Of a DNA stretch of 64,000 bases, positions 36,208 to 51,537 are shown in pieces. The notes under the pieces were generated by a model that was not told where the DNA came from, did not search any database, and saw nothing but the letters and a program-made list of their open reading frames with translations. The DNA comes from Haliotis rubra (taxonomy: Eukaryota). The stretch lies in assembly GCF_003918875.1 (NCBI RefSeq), contig NW_025765336.1:1178001-1242000 (forward strand), given 5' to 3'. Made by a program: the position numbers and the translations under genes. How positions within the stretch are numbered: position 1 is the first letter of the stretch; each line of letters opens with the position of its first letter.

Positions 36208-37462
36208 TACTCAGTTGAAGTATATCTAAACGTATAAAAACAAAACGTTATTGTTAAACAACGTTTATTATTATTATTATCATGTCAAAGGTCAATGGTT
36301 TGGCAGCCATATTGAATTTCGAGCTTTAGAATTTATGCTGTTTTCTGAAAGTTAATTCTGTAAATAGCAATATCAACCAACTAATCCATTACATGCTGGG
36401 CTGTTATCGTGATCTTAACCGGAAAATGATATTTAATGGCCAACTGTGCCTGTTCAGTCGGAAATGTGTTTCTATCTGATGTTTGGTATTTACATAAGTA
36501 GCGAGAGGGTCCGTGGCAGATTGGCGTGGTGTACTTGTTTTATACCCATGTATCAGGATATGCTTTATGGTGAATTAGAGATAGCGTATTGTGATATGAA
36601 AAAAAATATTGATGGAACAAAAAAAGTGAATACGGATCGTTTTGGAAGATTTGAGTACTGCTACGTACAAGGTATGGTAAGGAACTGTTATAACGAACTC
36701 AAAGAGGCCGCTAATATAGCTTGTTATGACCGTATGAATACTCCATGCCTTTTAGACAAAAGTTATATTCAACATATGTTCTATGGGATTACAATTTCTA
36801 CATAGACAATGCACATGTGCCAGGATCCTCTTCTCGCCTTCTCGAATACCAAATTCGTCCTGATTATTTTTATCAGGTTAACAGCAACCTGTAGGCGTCA
36901 CCAAATTTCATATCTCACTCACTCACTCATAACCCACCCACTCACTCACGCATGCATGCACGCACTCACGCATAACCCGCGCACGCACGCACGCTCGCAC
37001 GCTCTCTCACCCATCCACCCACTCACTCTCTCACTCACGAAGTGTCCTTGGACAGGTATCCCGTGACAGCTGTTAAAATGAGCCCAGCCAATCATACAAC
37101 GCAAGTTACAGAGACATGAATGGTGTTCCTGATGGGTTTCCATAGCTAAGACGAGCACTATATATACGTCCAGGATTTGCAATGTTCGGAAGAAGACGAA
37201 ACAATATCAACCAAATCGGCAGTTGTACACACTAACATCTTTGAATACAACTGCAGAATCCGTCAAGTCGATAGATGGCATTTATAAAAAAAACGCAAAT
37301 TAGCAGACGACACTTAAACGGACATCACTGGTGGAATCAGCGAAAGAGGAGGACGACATTTGTGAAGTACTCTAGATTGGCAGACGACATTTTTACTGTC
37401 ATTCACTAAACAGACTACTGTTGATTCGGGGAAACAGGAGGACGACATCTGTGGAATCCACC

Positions 37463-38320
37463 ATGTCTGCGTGCAGGAAAGTAGCTGTTGTGACCGGGGG
37501 CAATAGAGGAATCGGGATCAGTCTGGTTCGTAACCTGTGTCAAACATTTGACGGGGCGGTCTACCTCACAGCCAGGAGCGAGGAACGCGGCAAGAAAGCT
37601 GTGCAAGATCTGAAGGCAGAAGGTTTGAATCCTTGCTTCCATCAACTTGATATCGACTCCAGAGACAGTATTTGTGATTTCGCCAAATATCTGAAGGAGA
37701 CCTACGGTGGAGTTAATGTAGTCATTGCAAACGGGTCTGTCAGTTACGAGAAGAACAGTCCCGTCCCTCTCTCGGAGCAGTCTGAAGGTTACATCCGCGT
37801 CAACAACATCGGCAACGCAAACCTCTACCAAGCCCTGGAACCTCTTCTCAGACAAGATGGCCGCTATGTCATTGTGTCAAGTGGGTTTGGACGACTGTCC
37901 AAAATACCCCAGAAGCTTCGACCAAAATTCCAAACTGAAAATAAGTCGATTGATCAACTAAACTGTGTCCTCAACGAATATGTGACATCAACCAAAGACG
38001 GCAGCTTCAAGGAGAAAGGGTGGCCAGATTGGCCAAACGTCGTCTCCAAGCTGGGCCTTGTAGCTCTAACCAGAATCATTGTGCGGAATCTAAAGGGCAA
38101 CCCTCGTCGTCTGCTCGTGAACGCCTCATGTCCCGGATGGACTGTCACAGACGCCGCAAGGTCATTTCTGGACGAAAGAGGGATGTTTGGTAACGTGAAG
38201 GCAAAGCACCCGGATGAAGCTGCAGTCGACATGATTTGGCTCGCCACGTTGCCTCCTGGAACAACGTCGCCACACGGAGAGCTGATTCAGTACAGAAAGG
38301 TCCTGTCGTATGAAGGGTAA
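37463..38320 (+). CDS. Carbonyl reductase [NADPH]-like short-chain dehydrogenase/reductase, 285 aa, intronless CDS, atypical NxxSK active site
   Basis: CCACCATG Kozak context; VAVVTGGNRGIG Rossmann motif, ARSEERG, HQLDI, GWP, CPGW motifs typical of CBR1-type SDRs; AATAAA at ~38520. Confidence 0.92.
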   Translation: MSACRKVAVVTGGNRGIGISLVRNLCQTFDGAVYLTARSEERGKKAVQDLKAEGLNPCFHQLDIDSRDSICDFAKYLKETYGGVNVVIANGSVSYEKNSPVPLSEQSEGYIRVNNIGNANLYQALEPLLRQDGRYVIVSSGFGRLSKIPQKLRPKFQTENKSIDQLNCVLNEYVTSTKDGSFKEKGWPDWPNVVSKLGLVALTRIIVRNLKGNPRRLLVNASCPGWTVTDAARSFLDERGMFGNVKAKHPDEAAVDMIWLATLPPGTTSPHGELIQYRKVLSYEG

Positions 38321-38960
38321 AGTGCCATGCATGTAGATCACCCTAGGTCATCTAATACAATGTTGAGGACAGCATTATGTCAGAACATTAAGTAATATAA
38401 CCTTTGATATATAATCAAGACAATCACGAAAGGTGTGTATAATCTGGCTGTTTGTGCCGGAAACATCTAATCCTTTGCATGTATGTTTTAAACACGCAGC
38501 TTGCGTTTCAACTAAAATGAATAAAACGCTGATAGTGTTGTGCATATAGCCATCTATTATAATGCATATTTTTCTGTTATATCTTTTTCGACTAGTTGTT
38601 AGGCATATGTCATAATCAGTTGACGAGATACACTTGTTAGGAACTCGTACGTGTCTTCCTACTGTCTGTGCCGAAGGAGTGTGTTTCTGTCAGAAATGAT
38701 ACAGCGAGCATACCCTGTACGTTTTCTTCAATATGACGTCAGTTTCTCCCCATCCTACATGTAGTGGATCTTAAGGCTGGCCCTACCTCGACTACTTTCA
38801 TTGTTGTTGTAAACACATGATATCTTAACGCCTTTAAAGATTGGGGAATACGCGTAGCTAAGATCTTTTCTTTAGCTACAACTTTACGACAATCTTAGTA
38901 CCAAGCAGTGATAATACATAGCTAAGGTTTTATTGGCTACGACAACCTTAAGACAATGGT

Positions 38961-39700
38961 AAAGTAACGTATGTGTGTACAGGTAACGTATGTGTGTACA
39001 AGTAACATATGTGTGTACATGTAACATATGTGTGTACATGTAACGTATGTGTGAACAGGTAACGAATGTGTGTACAAGTAACGTATGTGTGTACAGTTAA
39101 CGTGTGTGTGTACAAGTAACGTATGTGTGTACAAGTAACGTAACAAGTAACGTGTGTGTGTACAAGTAACGTATGTGTGTACAAGTAACGTACAAGTAAC
39201 GTATGTGTGTACAAGTAACGTGTGTGTGTGTACATATGTGTGTACAAGTAACGTGTGTGTGAACAAGTAACGTATGTGTGTACAAGTAACGTATGTGTGT
39301 ACAGTAACGTATGTGTGTACAAGTAACGTATGTGTGTACAAGTAACGTGTGTGTGTACAAGTAACGTATGTGTGTACAAGTAACGTATGTGTGTACAAGT
39401 AACATATGTGTGTACAAGTAACGTATGTGTGTACAAGTAACGTATGTGTGTACAAGTAACGTATGTGTGTACAAGTAACGTATGTGTGTACAAGTAACGT
39501 ATGTGTGTACAAGTAACGTATGTGTGTACAAGTAACGTATGTGTGTACAAGTAACGTATGTGTGTACAAGTAACGTATGTGTGTACAAGTAACGTATGTG
39601 TGTACAAGTAACGTATGTGTGTACAAGTAACGTATGTGTGTACAAGTAACGAATGTGTGTACAAGTAACGTATGTGTGTACAAGTAACGTGTGTGTACAA
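38961..39700. repeat. Minisatellite, 19-bp unit (AAGTAACGTATGTGTGTAC)
   Basis: Direct inspection; inverted shorter array at 43122-43297. Confidence 0.95.
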
Positions 39701-40016
39701 GTTTCCTTGAGTGCGTGAGCCATTGCGTGTGTGACTACCGCTTTCAGCAATATTCTAGCTAAATCCCGGCGAGCGGCACCAGAAATTGGCTTCACACATT
39801 GTACCTCTGTGGAAATCGAACCCTTTGGGATAACATTTAATTATTACGCCTAGGAGAGCGGTGGGGTAGCCTAGTGGTTCAAGCGTTCGCTCGTCACCCC
39901 AAAGACCAGGGTTCGATTCCCTGGTACAGTGTTTGAAGCCCATTTCTGGTGTCCCACGCCGTGTTATTGCTGGAATATTGCTAAAAGCGGCGTAAAACCA
40001 AACTCACTCACCCACT
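39697..40016 (+). repeat. Left arm of ~320-bp inverted duplication (two SINE1 pieces plus spacer)
   Basis: Near-identical reverse complement at 42694-43013, including non-SINE spacer and private variants. Confidence 0.9.
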
Positions 40017-40227
40017 CATATGCTACATGCTACACAAACAATGGAAATAGTTCGAATACGATTTCCAAATTAAATACCAACATATTACGCTGTTTCGCCA
40101 TCCTGACCAACTCCAATACCGGCCTGGAATGGTAGACCAATTGTAAAACAACCCACACTGAACAGTTAATGACGTTCATGTGGTGTAAAGATGTAAGGCT
40201 TAAGGGTCATTGCTGGCTATACATATA

Positions 40228-40792
40228 CAATGCCGTCCGGTAATTCCGCGCACCTAAGCGCATCGATCGCAACACGGCAACTAACGTCTCTTATTTTTTT
40301 AGGTTTACGTGACTAAACATGCTGGTATGCATCATTTTTACCTAAACTATAAGATTCTAACGTTGCATTATGCCATACGGTTGACCTTACCGGTGTTCTG
40401 ACGACATCGCTTACTGCGATCCGGTAATTCTGCGCAGCAACTGATGCGCTTAACATCCGGCTGGAGATCCGAAGTATGGAAGCGTATTAGGGCCAGATTA
40501 TTTTCAAAAATCACTTCATTAATGTAAGGAAGAGTGTTTCATATCAAATCCAATTATGAATAATTAAGAAAAAGGTTTAAAAGTCTGAAGAAAACTAATT
40601 TTTATAAAACTGTCAATTTATCTGTCAATTACTGTTATTTACTTACCTTTGGTGATTAAAAGCCAGTCCCTTGTAGTAATGTCTCGATTTCAAGCGTAAA
40701 TGTGGTAGCAGACGATGTTTACCTGTGATACGGAAGTACGCTATTGCAGCTGCACAGAATTACCGGACGCGCGGAACTACAGGACTCGCTTG
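40228..40792. mobile_element. Tc1/mariner-type MITE-like element, TA flanks
   Basis: Imperfect TIRs caatgccgtccggtaattccgcgc / gcgcggaactacaggactcgcttg, repeated subterminal ccggtaatt motif. Confidence 0.55.
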
Positions 40793-40987
40793 TATACTTA
40801 AGCAGGAATCTTCGCAACGCATATATACTGTACTTGTTGCCTGAATCTAGTGAAAAAATCAAAGACTCTAATAAAAGACACACACATCGTCCATGACAGA
40901 ACTTTCAGATAATTTTAATTTCAAATATGCCTCATTGGTTATATTGCCGGAAGTTAACAGTGTGTGTATTGTCCACCTCATGGCTAG

Positions 40988-41846
40988 CTACCCTTCATAG
41001 GACAAGACCTTCCTGTACTGGACCAGCACTCCCATTGGGGACGTTGTTCCAGGTGGCAACGTGGCCAACCAAACCACGTCGACTGCAGCTTCATCCGGGT
41101 GCCTTGCCTTCATGTCACCAAACATACCTTTCTCATCCAGATACGTCTTGGTAGCGTCTGTGACAGTCCATCCGGGACAGGAGGCGTTCACGAGCAGACG
41201 ACGAGGGTTGTCCTTCAGATTGCGCACAAGGATTCTGGTTAGAGCTACAAGACCCAGCTTGGAGACGACGTTTGGCCAATCCTGGCCACCCTTTCTCCTT
41301 GTAGCTGCCGTCCTTGGTTGATGTCACATATTCGTTGAGGACACAGTTTAGTTGATCAATCGACATATTGTCCGTTTGGAATTTTGGTCGAAGCTTCTCA
41401 GAGATGTGGGACAATTGCCCAAACCCACTTGACACAATGACATAGCGGCCATCTTGTCTGAGAAGAGGTTCCAGGGCTTGGTAGAGGTTTGCGTTGCCGA
41501 TGTTGTTGACGCGGATGTAACCTTCAGACTGCTCCGAGAGAGGGACGGGACTGTTCTTCTCGTAACTTACAGACCCGTTGGCAATGATTACATTAACTCC
41601 ACCGTAGGTCTCCTTCAGATATTTGGCGAAATCACAAATGCTGTCTCTGGAGTCGATGTCAAGTTGATGGAAGCAAGGACTCAAACCTTCTGCCTTCAGA
41701 TCTTGCACAGCTTTCTTGCCGCGTTCTTCGTTTCTCGCTGTGAGGTAGACCGCCCCGTCAAATGTTTGACACAAGTTACGAACCAGACTGATCCCGATTC
41801 CTCTGTTGCCCCCGGTCACAACAGCTACTTTCCTGCACGCAGACAT
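40988..41846 (-). pseudogene. Second carbonyl reductase-like SDR copy (inverted paralogue) with a 1-bp insertion at ~41281-41282; pseudogene or sequencing error
   Basis: 859 nt vs 858 nt for copy 1; TGGCCAGGATTGG vs TGGCCAGATTGG; both halves otherwise open and colinear to the same stop position. Confidence 0.8.
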
Positions 41847-42693
41847 GGTGGATTCCACAGATGTCGTCCTCCTGTTTCCCCGAATCAACAGTAGTCTGTT
41901 TAGTGAATGACAGTAAAAATGTCGTCTGCCAATCTAGAGTACTTCACAAATGTCGTCTGTTGGTTTGGAGGATGTTACAAGTTTCTTCTAAGGGTATTCA
42001 GATGTCGTCTGATGGTGGTGCGATTAGCCGCTCTTTCCCTGCGATACGAAAGGTGTGCTCCTATTCAGTGTAGCAAGGCGAGATCTGACCAGATCAACCA
42101 ACAGCCAGACTATTCCGCCAGACCGGTAGCGTGTTGATACAAAGCTGATCAAGGGGGATTGTGCAATATTGCAAACGACCCCTTATACAGAGTTATTCTG
42201 ATATGGTATTCCCGCCGTAGTGCAAGTAGACCGCGGGTGTCAACCTCCTGAAGGAATGTTATCTTACCTCCATGACAGAATGCTGAGATCTGACCCGATC
42301 CTGCCACATTTCCGTGTATCCCGCCAGGGAGGGAAGTGAAGTCCACAGCTGGAGAAAAAATCCCATCAACCCCGCTACAAAGCGGAAGCCACTCAGTGAA
42401 AGACACGTAACACAGTACAAGTCAACCTCAGCTCATTAAAACATCTGTTCTTAGTTATTTTTTAATTCCTTCTAATTCTTTTACAATGGCAAATTAAAAA
42501 ATGTCGGTGTAGCAGTATCATCGTAGCCCCGGCGCATGACGTGTATAATCAAATGCTACATACGTATAATACTACATGCACCCCTCGTTATACTGCTTCA
42601 ATATGTGTTATCTCATTAGAAGATTGCTGACTCACAGTGGGTTGCTTTTGAGAGCACAAGCAGCCCCTTAAAATGTTTTGAAGACTTTCGTAA

Positions 42694-43297
42694 AGTGGGT
42701 GAGTGAGTTTGGCTTTACGCCGCTTTTAGCAATATTCCAGCAATAACACGGCGTGGGACAGCAGAAATGGGCTTCAAACACTGTACCGGGGAATCGAACC
42801 CTGGTCTTTGGGGTGACGAGCGAACGCTTGAACCACTAGGCTACCCCACCGCTCTCCTAGGCGTAATAATTAAATGTTATCCCAAAGGGTTCGATTTCCA
42901 CAGAGGTACAATGTGTGAAGCCAATTTCTGGTGCCGCTCGCTGGGATTTGGCCAGAATATTGCTGAAAGCGGTAGTCACACACGCAATGGCTCACGCACT
43001 CAAGGAAACTTGTCGTTGTATACAGGGAGTGCTTGGAGTGAGTTTTGATATATTTTGATGACAGCTGGAATGAGATGAGCGATGAACGTTATGTTATACT
43101 GTGTTATACACATTCATTCATTCACACATACGTTACTTGTACACACATACCTTACTTGTACACTCATACGTTACGTGTGCTTGTACGCACATACATGCAC
43201 TTACTTGTACACACGTTACATGTACACACATACGTTACCTGTACACACATACGTTACCTGTACACACATACGTTACCTGTACACACATACGTTACTT
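42694..43297 (-). repeat. Right arm of inverted duplication plus inverted 19-bp minisatellite
   Basis: Reverse complement of 39697-40016 and of the 38961-39700 unit. Confidence 0.88.
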
Positions 43298-45119
43298 GAA
43301 CGTTATGTTATACTGTGCCGATCCGTCGTTGTTTTAACCCCTTAATACCGAGCACCAGGCAGGCAAACAACAAGTACCACCTTATAACATTTATCAGTAT
43401 GAGGTTGGGAGATGAGAATAGCACCATCGGCTCTCCGGATAAGAGTGAGCGAATTTAGTTTTACGCAGCACTCAGCAATACTCCAGCTATGAGCATCGAT
43501 CTACGCAATTGGGACACGATGACATATGTCAGCCAAGTCAGCGAGCCTGACCACCCGATCCCGTTAGTCGCCTCTGACGACAAGCATGGGTTACTGAAGA
43601 TCAATTCTAACGGGTTCTCTGGACAAGAACTACCTCCACTAACTACATAGTAGAATATATTTAGATCTAAAGTCACGAGGTTCCGAGTTCCATAATTTCA
43701 ACATGTTTAGAAATAAATTACGTTTTCACCATATCAAGGAGTAAACATGTTTAAATTCGCACACCAACTAATATAAGCTGTGGGACCTTGGCTCGTTTCG
43801 TGTGTTTAAATACTAGCACCGAATAAGTATTCCGGTTTACCATATAAACACATTACTCAACATGATTAGGTTCTGTTTAGATTCTAAACCTATTTATACA
43901 GTTAAATAACTAAAGCTGACAGTGGTATGAAAATAAGAGCGAAAGTATATTATCATCAAGTGTTTATTATCGTAACCCATATGATAATGGGTGATACACA
44001 CGCTGTGAAAGACAATGGTACATATTGGTACATAAAGGTACATAATATATACAACTTCAGATTGCACACACAAGGATTCAATATTTGCCAGGATTTCTAA
44101 ACCTGTTCAGTGTCCCATAATTCTTCAGACCGACAGTAGCACAGTTACCATGACAACCATGCCATGACATCTGTTCTCCCGAACATGTTCGTATAAATGG
44201 CTACAGTTGCATCCGAAACGATGTCTTATCTCGACAATGCATATTTTTCGAAACATGAAAAGAATGAAACCTACGTCCTTATCAGCGTTCCACAAACTCA
44301 TTCCGCAACGACACAGTACAACCGCGACGACGTTTTCAATGGTACGTGATCGGACCAGAATTATGACAAGGCCGTTTGAAATACATACCACTTTTTGGAT
44401 GACGGAATCACATTCCACCTCACAGTTCGAAGTCATGAACCTTTTGCCCAACACACCATACAAACGTTTGGTGAAACTAATACAAAACAATATGTATGAG
44501 GGAATGGGAATGTGAGTGAGTGAGTATGGTTTTACGCCGCTTTTAGCAATATTCCAGCAATATCACGGCGGGGGACACCAGAAATGGGCTTCACACAATG
44601 TGCCCATGTGGGGATTCGAAGAATGTGAATATGAAACATGTATATCGCAATGTACTTTTTGTAACGTTTTCTCCACAAAGAAAAATAACAAAGTGTTTGC
44701 AGGCCAATGCACATCGTACATAAAACGCAAATGCCTAAAATCATACGGACTTTCTCATCAGTAAACATAATGTACGTGAAAACTACAGAACTGGTAGCTG
44801 TTAGAAAACAAATTTGAATAAACATAAATAACTTATGGGACAGTCGATCCAGCAATGAAAGAAGCTATAACCCATCTTCACATTCCACGTAATACTCCAC
44901 TTTTCATAGGGATATGCTTATCTGTCTGTGGTGCACAAAGCTGATTTTCGTGTCAAGTGTATATATACATAGAAGAAATATGTGATTGGCCTCAGAAAAC
45001 GCTGAACAATTTAACATTTTTGTAGAAATGACGGCCACATGAAGACGGGGTGCTTGTGATCAGACAGTAACCATGAAAATATACAATTATAGGATTAAGA
45101 GGCAACAGAACCAGCCAAG

Positions 45120-46921: not shown

Positions 46922-48028
46922 CAGTGTCATAGCTGTTGACACTTGGCAGTCGGCTAATTTGGGATGGTTAGATCGGAAATGAAACTTTGTCACCGGAAGT
47001 ACTAAACAACGTAAGGTCTCGCGAAGTACCGTATCCTACTTACGAGCCCTATTGATTGAGTCCCCACAATCTCGCCTCTTATCCTTCTTACTTAAATCTC
47101 ACCAATTGAAACTGTACTATTCTTATAGCATCAATGAAAGGAATGCAGCATAAGTTGATTCATATGTAAAATGATGAGTTAGGACCGTTCAAACTATATG
47201 GCTGGGGGAGAGGGGGGTTAGTTGTGGTAGTGGTGGTACATAGAGAAGCATGTACAATGTGAATGCCCCCCCAAAAACAAACAAAACAACAACAAACAAA
47301 CAAACAAAAAACATGAGTATATCATACGCACATGGATTTCCTCCCTTACTTAGGACTTATCATGGTTTTTACAGAGTACGTTTTCATTAGTAATATATAT
47401 CTACCTGTTTCAACTGAAAGTCTAAAATATCTGAATCTAAAAATCTAAAAATTGGAATACATGTATCATGGTCAGACTAGCACTAGTATCTATTTAGAGT
47501 GGTATGCCTTGTAATATAGCTGATGTAATAATGCCCCATGACAAAACACACTAAGCTAATGTAATAATGCCCCATGCCAAAACATTAATAGGTTTCTTTA
47601 GGTGTTTTGGAGATTTTGAATTTTGCATTTTTTGCGTCATTTCCGGGAGGCCGAAGTCGACACCCACACCGATGAAGTCTTAGCTTCATTTGACATGAAT
47701 GTTTTCTGCTTTTGTAAACAAACGCGCCTTTTCTGAAATCATATTGGACTAAACGAGTATATCGGGTTTGTTCGGGTTTTGAAACGCTGCTTTCAATATT
47801 CCAGCCATATAACGGTCTATAAATAGTGGAGTCTGGATCAGACAATCCAGTGATTGATTCAATGATATGACATACATCCAACACGCAGCAAACCATACAA
47901 CCCAGTGCTGTTAATCGCCGCTAATCATAGATTGGAGGAGATCAGTTCTAACGTGGATATTTTCTTGAGCCCTGATAAACAGATTCCAGGACTAATCCGT
48001 ATCCCGTCTCACTTGGATCCAAACTAAC

Positions 48029-48343
48029 CTTGGTCCAGACTAATCTCCCTTGTGTTTCTAGCCTGGTAGGCGTGCAGGGCTCGAACTCGTACATTCGACA
48101 TGAGGCTGACTTCGTCGCTTTCACTGCTGCTGTTGCAGCTGCTGGAACTCAGATCATCAATGCTGTAGCCGCTGCTGTTGAGGCTGAGGTCGTCCAGGTC
48201 TTCTTGCATGTCTTCGAGGTCCTTGAAATTGCTTAGGAGTTCTCCCGGCGCCAGGGCGATGACTTGCGTTAGGGTGACCTCTTCGTCCTTCCTGAACAAC
48301 TTACGGCGAAGCCCTATTGCCCAAACATGCACTCATTTAGAAT
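48029..48343 (-). CDS. PACSIN-like exon 12 (acidic/Ser-rich linker + SH3 N-half VRVRALHAYQARNTREISLDQ); in-frame TGA at 48333-48335
   Basis: TACAG acceptor, GTTAGT donor; ALxxY...E.S...G SH3 motif. Confidence 0.72.
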
Positions 48344-50300: not shown

Positions 50301-50728
50301 CTGTGAGAAATAATTGGTGAAATCAAACCATTAACAGATCAGAATTTGCACAGTAATTGTTCACAAGAACAAGACGCACGATACAGCCAGAAGCAGGGTA
50401 GGGTGTGAGAATGAATCGACAAGTATACAACAGTGAGGTATCAGGATTTAACTCTAGCCATTTTTACTCTGATAACACATACCAACAGCGATGTGGTACA
50501 AAGACATTTAACAGCGAATGGCGATGCGCTCGATCAGTGTCACACTTATATATCTCTGACAGCATATGATAAACATGTTTTCAAGAGATTGAGAATGAAT
50601 AGAAACCTTGATCCTTGATGTTCACAGTTTTCCGTGACTTGGCCTTCACAGCGGGCTAAATGTGGATTGGTCATGTCAGTTGTATATATAATAACAAAAA
50701 TAGCCATGTACTATACTTGGAAACTGAC

Positions 50729-51537
50729 CGAAACTGGTGGACGTAGTTGGAGGGGGGCTACCAGCCTTGGCGAGCACGGAGTCGTTGGAATAGGAGATGA
50801 ATACGTTCTTGATACATTGCTGGTTAACCTTTATCTCATGGTCTGACACCTCAACTGTCTGTGTGGCGCATTCGTCAGCCACGTCTTCCCCAGCTGTCTG
50901 TATGACGTAGTTGCAGGTAGGGTAATTTCCAGAAGTGATGCATTCGCTGCCAAGGTCATGACTACCTGGGTGATTGCCGAGGAGGTCGTTCTGGCTCGCA
51001 CCCCCGGCCGGATGTGTGCTGTTCACGTCGTCCTCACTCACACCTCCAACCGGATGTCCGCTGGTCAAGTAGTTCTGACTCTCACCCCGAACCGGATGTG
51101 TGATGGTCAAGTCGTTCTGGCTCGCACCCCCAACCGGATGTCTGTTGGTCAAGTCATTCTGGCTCACACTCCGAGCTTGATCTGTGCTGTATATTTCTCC
51201 GTGGCTATCATCCCCAAACGGATGTCTGGTGGTCGGTTCGTCCGGACTGGCACTCCCAGCCGGATGTGTGCTATTCCGGTTGTCCTGATCTTCAGCCCCT
51301 GCAGGAAGTGTGCAAGTCAAGCCGTCTTCACTCGCAGCCCCAGCCGGATACGTCCTGGTCAAGTCGTCTTGACTGGCACCCCTAAGGTACTCGCTGACCA
51401 GATCTTCCTGACGCCCAGACGTCCTCGCAAGGTACTCGTTGACCAGCTCTTCCTGTCGAGTCTGAATCTTCAACAGGTGATTCACACGTGCTATCTGAGA
51501 ACAGCCGTACTGGACCTGAGACGTGTTCGGCAAAGGC
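50729..51537 (-). CDS. PACSIN-like exon 9, large low-complexity exon with ~10 degenerate 14-aa repeats (ASQNDLTxxHPVGG)
   Basis: ATTTCAG acceptor in phase 2, open frame (ORF 50676-51533), GTCAGT donor in phase 1 matches exon 10. Confidence 0.75.

Follow-up and report, generated by a model that had tools for sequence, protein, structure and literature searches.

Few residues in SDR enzymology are as conserved as the tyrosine of the YxxxK motif; according to PMC4988501, it is replaced in just a handful of more than 500 SDRs. In porcine carbonyl reductase (CBR), Tyr193 is regarded as the proton donor, as stated in PMC3960098. A natural departure is described in PMC4988501 for isopiperitenone reductase of Mentha (5lcx, 5l4s), from the salutaridine/menthone reductase group with its CBR-like fold, where Glu takes the place of the catalytic Tyr, a 1,4 (ene) reduction is performed, and this residue together with Ser holds the carbonyl of the substrate. 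The reverse swap in isopiperitenone reductase is reported there to restore ketoreduction, so that the swap of the residue amounts to a swap of chemistry, and the Y244E variant of MNMR had its ketoreduction abolished and gave only 3% ene product.

In the abalone Haliotis rubra, translation of the window (the whole stretch of 64,000 nucleotides that was analysed) revealed an unbroken, intronless ORF at 37463-38320 of the plus strand, coding for 285 amino acids followed by a stop, with asparagine at this position. Its ATG sits in the context CCACCATG, and the encoded protein (P0001) contains TGGNRGIG, IANGS, VSSG and GWPDWPNVVSK. The features of the gene, with the evidence in brackets, are as follows:

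37463-38320, plus strand: intact intronless ORF (copy 1) for P0001, a CBR1-fold SDR of the Tyr-to-Asn subfamily (translation, Pfam, HMMER, model)
37493-37516, plus strand: Rossmann glycine motif TGGNRGIG, residues 11-18 (translation and alignment)
37574-37588, plus strand: Arg38 to Arg42, equivalent to Arg37 and Arg41, with which porcine CBR contacts NADPH (alignment; contacts from PMC3960098)
37802-37807, plus strand: Asn114, the tetrad Asn, which is kept, and Asn115, which is specific to the subfamily and is Tyr or Phe in Tyr-type CBRs (alignment, conservation)
37880-37891, plus strand: Ser140 at the catalytic Ser position, followed by G-F-G, with Phe142 and Gly143 conserved in the subfamily (alignment, conservation)
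38018-38050, plus strand: GWPDWPNVVSK, where Asn192 (38036-38038) takes the place of the catalytic Tyr and Lys196 is kept (translation and alignment)
38129-38140, plus strand: Cys223-Pro-Gly-Trp, equivalent to Cys226-Trp229 of CBR1 (alignment, conservation)
38159-38188, plus strand: substrate-loop insertion of about 10 residues (233-242), not found in CBR1 and predicted to form a short helix and a hairpin (alignment, model)
38520-38525, plus strand: candidate polyadenylation signal AATAAA, about 200 nt past the stop (sequence)

P0001 was assigned to the Pfam family adh_short (E 1.7e-20), and its best solved relatives in HMMER were human CBR1 (1wma, E 2.6e-56), porcine testicular carbonyl reductase (1n5d) and CBR3 (2hrb), all at E 1e-52 or better. 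In the HMMER alignment, Asn192 falls on human CBR1 Tyr193, Lys196 on Lys197, Ser140 on Ser139 and Asn114 on Asn113. The YxxxK motif is absent, with N192-V-V-S-K196 standing where CBR1 has Y193...K197, and the Tyr-to-Asn observation, made from the letters alone in an earlier note on this DNA, holds. P0001 displays the features of a classical SDR (TGxxxGxG Rossmann fold, catalytic Ser and helix-E Asn), along with the hallmarks of CBRs, namely GWP, CPGW and the helical insert before the catalytic helix (alignment, model). The alignment with CBR1 and porcine CBR bore out the same note's listing of the Rossmann motif, the basic NADP(H)-type residues and the catalytic Ser and Lys as retained; as far as the letters tell, the basic residues are Arg15, Arg38 and Arg42, at the places of Lys14, Arg37 and Arg41. 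Its statement that NNAG reads IANGS is right for the first Asn, which is lost, and has to be refined for the cofactor-binding Asn, which is kept (CBR1 Asn89 corresponds to Asn90). Among the NADPH contacts listed for porcine CBR in PMC3960098, 9 of the 13 hydrogen-bonding and 6 of the 8 hydrophobic ones are identical in P0001.

The AlphaFold model of P0001, built on an alignment of 36 rows, reached a pLDDT of 96.5, and Foldseek matched it to CBR1 with a TM of 0.91, which like the Pfam E value is far beyond chance. A separate structural comparison with CBR1 gave Z 40.4, with an rmsd of 1.5 Å over 271 residues at 40% identity. Human CBR1, CBR3 and porcine CBR share with P0001 their fold, down to the helical insert that precedes the Tyr helix, as well as the NADPH contacts, the Ser and Lys, Asn113 and the CPGW motif. 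Between CBR1 and P0001, by contrast, Tyr193 is changed to Asn, Ser191 to Trp, Phe114 to Asn, Met141 to Phe and Met234 to Ala, and P0001 additionally has the 10-residue lid insertion, no introns and a place in a separate clade. Judged by alignment, model and tree, P0001 falls outside CBR1 on the catalytic Tyr and on its phylogenetic position, and its NADPH binding is likely CBR1-like. Isopiperitenone reductase (5l4s) was as well a structural neighbour of the model in Foldseek, but it differs in having an acid, Glu, rather than Asn, in its 25-26% identity and in its plant lineage; by its residues, which include Asn and no such Glu, P0001 is not of the isopiperitenone reductase type. The conservation table described below contained no conserved Tyr, His or Glu at the catalytic position, which answers the earlier proposal to look for a replacement there. 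Four tyrosines were considered as stand-ins and rejected: Tyr173 is present in 85% of the family, but it aligns to the insert helix, away in sequence from Tyr193, and none of Tyr95, Tyr110 and Tyr277 is conserved.

Of 1541 candidates in a first search for relatives, 93 proteins reached E 1e-30 or better. The nearest named homologue was that of Haliotis rufescens (83%), followed by proteins of Littorina and Batillaria (52-53%), EukProt entries including the euglenid Entosiphon sulcatum, and a large number of proteins from bacteria or metagenomes (40-49%); nearly all of these carried GWPxWxNxxSK, and they ranked above Tyr-type animal CBRs. Orthologues of the abalone gene occur in three other gastropods, the best matches outside molluscs were bacterial or protist (43-50%), and further Asn-type members were found in the fungus Hyaloraphidium curvatum and in one MMETSP transcript. 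In GTDB, 358 stretches matched WP[DEA]WxNx[PTV]SK and 272 of them encode a relative; the best 80 of these 272 belong to Pseudomonadota (49), Actinomycetota (9), Myxococcota (7), Chloroflexota (6), Acidobacteriota (4), Thermomicrobiota (1) and Thermodesulfobacteriota (1), with 3 unassigned. These matches and the alignments establish that a bacterial subfamily with GWPxWxNxxSK and an end of the form GEL..++KV, which the earlier note had mentioned, exists. Its members (Reyranella, Anaerolineae, Streptomyces, Parendozoicomonas and others) have the same Asn, Asn115, SxFG, lid insertion and GEL end as P0001 at 33-47% identity; they differ in usually having Pro194 and Gln199, where P0001 has Val and Leu, and in forming their own clade without gastropods. 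Two plasmid records with the subfamily were found, both of them Embleya megaplasmids, and a strict search with residues 100-289 of P0004 (E 1e-45) gave 3 matches. NCBIfam yielded no model at cut-off among the best 25 listed for each of five proteins, ESM Atlas yielded only generic SDR clusters, and the open-access literature yielded no description of the subfamily.

Conservation was compared between 141 Asn-type and 120 Tyr-type rows, some proteins being entered as both a P and an L row. The conservation of W190, N192 and K196 in this table is circular because the Asn rows were chosen by the motif. Outside the motif, the 141 Asn rows retain Ser140 (100%), Asn114 (99%), Gly143 (99%), Asn115 (97%), Gln199 (96%), Cys223 (95%, compared with 52% of the Tyr-type rows), Arg233 (88%) and Phe142 (85%). 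The pocket of the subfamily is thus made up of Asn115, Phe142, Gly143, Trp190, Asn192, Gln199, Cys223 and Arg233 together with the lid insertion; P0001 carries W190, N192, N115, S140-x-F-G, the insertion and the C-terminal GEL motif and differs at Gln199 and Pro194. In the orthologue of H. rufescens, Lys196 is replaced by Gln and Gly141 by Arg. On these alignments, the swap is not a private mutation and marks a subfamily without a name that has conserved pocket residues of its own. Since it is common to snails, some protists and hundreds of bacteria, it likely denotes a distinct type of enzyme with different chemistry.

A further Tyr-less relative, labelled 'CBR1-like', is found in the bivalves Saccostrea, Mizuhopecten, Mactra and five Mytilus species. 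It resembles P0001 in lacking Tyr, in the lid insertion and in the C-terminal motif, and is sister to the Asn-type proteins in the trees; it differs in that the Tyr site is occupied by D, S, K, L, I or C, and in that most of the proteins have lost Ser140 and Asn114, with Asn in place of the former in 6 of the 8 and Asp in place of the latter in 5. Decay toward non-catalysis thus occurs nearby, and this pan-bivalve paralogue (P0109, P0110, P0262 and P0264, from Saccostrea, Mizuhopecten, Mytilus and Mactra) is a candidate pseudoenzyme. The oyster protein P0109 (XP_062598145.1) has 810 amino acids, with a receptor-like N-terminal part joined to the SDR, and is possibly a mis-joined gene model. 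Three other proteins from ENA/Logan (P0029, P0031 and P0032) are otherwise ordinary CBR1-like proteins, yet have GWPxWPNAV[AS]K, with W-P-N as in the query. P0029 grouped with the Tyr-type P0033 in the careful tree (99/99), all three did so in FastTree, and their Tyr-to-Asn change apparently arose independently. When metagenomes were scanned with P0029, nothing closely related came up, the best segments being 63% or less.

The genome of H. rubra contains 6 Tyr-type CBR paralogues, lying as intron-split genes on four other contigs. Each of the five paralogue regions that were fetched is divided into 5-7 exon pieces, in agreement with the earlier remark on an intronless CDS within an intron-rich genome, and the six catalytic exons seen all read YGxSK. 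On one contig (G000:C1169:770000-829500) several intron-split Tyr-type CBR genes form a cluster on both strands, and near-identical copies are also present on C2643 and C2731. With the scallop Tyr-less protein as the query, the only long matches in the genome were the two copies in the window.

The origin of the gene was approached with trees of 217 rows (FastTree), 70 rows (quick IQ-TREE) and 50 rows (quick and careful), the last obtained by removing 20 of the 70 rows as near-duplicates, long branches or surplus. The root was placed on plant and myxobacterial Tyr-type proteins, with CBR-like proteins of Perilla and Cuscuta as the plant outgroup and isopiperitenone reductase left out; the tree labels 'prot' and 'biv' include rows with no named taxon (P0005, P0261, P0018 and P0259). 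FastTree, quick IQ-TREE and the 50-row trees agree in placing the molluscs outside the bacteria. In the careful tree, the Tyr-less proteins form one clade (100/100), in which the bivalve proteins (99/96) are sister to an Asn clade (100/95) that unites P0001 with the bacterial members. The bacteria together with Entosiphon, P0261, the fungus and the MMETSP protein make up a clade without gastropods (100/97), and the nearest outgroup is animal CBR rather than myxobacterial CBR. Trees of the N-half and the C-half again left the gastropods outside the bacteria (98 and 97). The half scores (405 for the C-half against a bacterial-type protein, compared with 153-218 against Tyr-type animal CBRs) had hinted at a chimeric protein whose N-half is animal and whose C-half is bacterial, which both half trees rule out by excluding the gastropods from the bacteria.

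In the AU test, grouping the gastropods with Tyr-type animal CBRs, apart from the bacteria, was rejected at p 0.000164, being worse by 60 log units. P0001 is therefore no ordinary orthologue of animal CBR1; nesting among such orthologues was the outcome that the earlier note had named as fatal to its idea of transfer. This rejection implies a cross-domain transfer, and by sequence comparison the gene likely crossed between eukaryotes and bacteria. The direction which that note had implied, from bacteria to the animal, did not fare as well: full-length and half trees put the gastropods outside the bacteria and the bivalve Tyr-less proteins outside both, so that transfer from bacteria to snails is not favoured, and the best tree, rooted in this way, would read from eukaryotes to bacteria. 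Under this history, a Tyr-less CBR offshoot would have arisen long ago on the eukaryote side, persisted in molluscs alongside the intron-split Tyr-type genes, and then probably been passed into bacteria. The missing introns are compatible with retroposition as well as with import. One Littorina isoform (P0007) has a 25-residue insertion which, at the level of protein models, may reflect an intron whose position differs from those of the paralogous CBRs.

Import from bacteria into gastropods or early molluscs, with the root of the tree misplaced, is a serious possibility, to which we would give about one chance in three. It would explain why the gene is intronless among paralogue regions of 5-7 exon pieces, and it agrees with the bacterial or protist nature of the best non-mollusc matches, with the C-half score, and with the patchy spread in eukaryotes, two rows of which nest among bacteria. 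Gastropods inside bacterial subclade A were not rejected (p 0.12), but this placement is 23.6 log units worse, and no tree recovers it. All molluscs inside subclade A or B gave p 0.040 or 0.037, values that are marginal, uncorrected and obtained for subclades that were named once a tree had been seen, whereas monophyly of gastropods and bivalves was not rejected in the 70-row set (p 0.45); the animal rather than myxobacterial outgroup speaks against import as well.

A second copy of the gene lies downstream in the window, and comparison of the window with itself revealed the following features:

40988-41846, minus strand: copy 2, a paralogue in inverted orientation that carries an extra base at 41281/41282 in the assembly, with Asn192 kept and the original frame stop-free after the indel (comparison with copy 1)
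37352-38319, plus strand: duplicated unit of 111 nt of 5' flank and the CDS, ending at the stop; partner 41957-40989 (self-comparison)
39697-43013, no strand assigned: 320-nt inverted arms at 39697-40016 and 42694-43013 (98%) around copy 2, each adjoining a 19-nt satellite array, in opposite orientation (self-comparison)

The two copies are 93.6% identical over 969 nt, and copy 2 likewise has Asn at position 192, as the earlier note had read. Computed in two pieces split at the indel of copy 2, dS is 0.18, dN 0.046 and dN/dS 0.25 (0.20 before and 0.31 after the indel). Since copy 2 has no stop in its old frame and dN/dS is low, its frame break would be either recent or an assembly error, and we infer that the duplication in the abalone lineage is recent. 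Amino-acid changes between the copies cluster at residues 144-150, 232-248 and 271-275, the first two of which are substrate-side loops. The 19-nt satellite occupies 38937-39700 and 43120-43310, in inverted orientation around copy 2; inverted satellite and 320-nt arms enclosing this copy suggest a local inversion or a duplication aided by a mobile element. The gene lies amid repeats that recur across the window, and Pfam, run on 120 of the 138 window frames of at least 70 amino acids, identified no convincing host gene. Two ORFs on the minus strand (48024-48332 and 50676-51533) had no Pfam match and may be exons of a neighbouring gene; the first ends in what we take to be an SH3-like motif (VRALHAYQA...) and the second in a presumably TIR-like one (VFISYS).

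Sequencing runs provided a further view of the two copies. Contigs of runs X5 and X6, which come from one sample that is maybe the source of the assembly, join the gene to both types of flank, and both copies are thus present in the read data. The extra base of copy 2 was absent from all four runs examined. The X5/X6 contig is, however, closer to copy 1 (a piece of X5 has 11 differences from copy 1 compared with 35 from copy 2), and a piece of X7 shows copy-1 letters, so the runs bear out neither the indel nor its absence. In X2, from a related organism, a 1412-nt contig spans copy 2 and both its flanks without the extra base, and other contigs of this organism do not cover the flanks of copy 1, which suggests that the minus-strand position is the older one. 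Contigs about 88-90% alike occur in X1, X2 and X3, presumed RNA of the related organism, which does not by itself prove transcription; X8 had none.

As to function, we tentatively favour the reading that P0001 may be an active NADPH-dependent 1,4 (ene/quinone-type) reductase rather than an enzyme of ordinary ketone reduction, with small electrophiles as its probable substrates, for instance enones or quinones from algae in the diet; this reading draws on sequence, model and analogy. NADPH would be bound as in CBR1. Asn cannot donate a proton, so Ser140 and Asn192 would act as an oxyanion pair that holds and polarises the carbonyl of the substrate, hydride would be delivered to the beta carbon, and the enolate would be protonated by a water held by Lys196 or by Cys223. 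In Old Yellow Enzymes a His/Asn pair plays this oxyanion-pair role. Isopiperitenone reductase is only a partial precedent, because its Glu is an acid and Asn is not. Counted for the ene/quinone reading is that ordinary ketoreduction is covered by the 6 Tyr-type paralogues, and for an active enzyme, the dN/dS of 0.25 with changes in the substrate loops; Gln196 and Arg141 in H. rufescens and the loss of the tetrad in bivalves count against the latter.

The bacterial surroundings were surveyed through 183 hand-picked neighbouring ORFs in 58 of the best 80 loci. No neighbour was common to most loci, many of the scanned ORFs having no Pfam match; a divergent lactonase-like gene was shared by 15, mostly of Reyranella. 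LysR within two genes (8 loci), divergent TetR (5), SnoaL (7), a second SDR (6), the zinc-ADH/quinone-reductase type (5) and F420_oxidored (3) were seen among the 58 loci, and nitroreductase, CMD, DsbA and glyoxalase genes once or twice. Six loci (L036, L045, L058, L066, L071 and L089) combine a LysR/AraC regulator, an S15-type alpha/beta hydrolase and SnoaL, with a second SDR in 3 of the 6. As predicted from their sequences, these neighbours would suit a stand-alone small-molecule redox enzyme and name no substrate.

That P0001 still reduces C=O groups, with a water held by Asn192 and Lys196, or Cys223, in place of the Tyr acid and with activated carbonyls as substrates, is unlikely in our estimate. 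It would account for the retention of Ser140, Lys196, Asn114 and Cys223 and for an overall fold nearest to CBR1, but loss of Tyr abolished ketoreduction in MNMR Y244E of the same fold group (PMC4988501), and six Tyr-type paralogues are already in the genome. We grant an equally small chance to a non-redox or net-neutral catalyst (isomerase, dehydratase or cyclase), or a C=N reductase, using bound NADP(H). Vitrosamine synthase (5o98) is among the plant folds nearest to P0001, SnoaL-like genes lie near 7 bacterial loci, and iminium reduction requires no acid; against this, a fixed, pathway-like gene cluster was not found in the scanned bacterial loci. Less probable still is the alternative raised by the earlier note, a protein that binds NADP(H) or senses redox state without catalysis, for which an NmrA-like role is the model. 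The acid is gone, the H. rufescens orthologue is also without Lys, and the bivalve sisters have lost more of the tetrad, but Ser140 is present in 141 of 141 rows and the family-specific pocket is nearly invariant from bacteria to snails, which makes the sensor the weaker rival. The bacterial gene moreover lies among enzymes, often behind a regulator and with no fixed partner, and the changes between the paralogues cluster in substrate loops. A decaying retrocopy or contaminant, to which the lack of introns and the frameshift of copy 2 might point, is very improbable given the intact ORF, the orthologues in three other gastropods, a dN/dS of 0.25, the repeats around the gene that recur in the window and the X5/X6 contigs that join both types of flank.

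Taken as one history, a mollusc-lineage intronless CBR offshoot would have changed Tyr to Asn, become an acid-free NADPH ene/quinone reductase and moved from eukaryotes to bacteria (at least six phyla) and on to some protists and fungi; we consider this complete chain rather doubtful. If true, a reductase born in eukaryotes, working without an acid and exported, would add a catalytic type to the SDRs and be a rare case of a metabolic enzyme passing from eukaryotes to bacteria, and the family offers a testable case of transfer in an unusual direction. The subfamily spans kingdoms and combines a non-acidic Asn with a new pocket that is conserved, but the labels given to its members are 'carbonyl reductase 1-like' or generic SDR. 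They are small soluble targets for studying SDR chemistry without the Tyr acid and could serve flavin-free ene reduction, and in grazing snails the enzyme may contribute to the handling of algal electrophiles.
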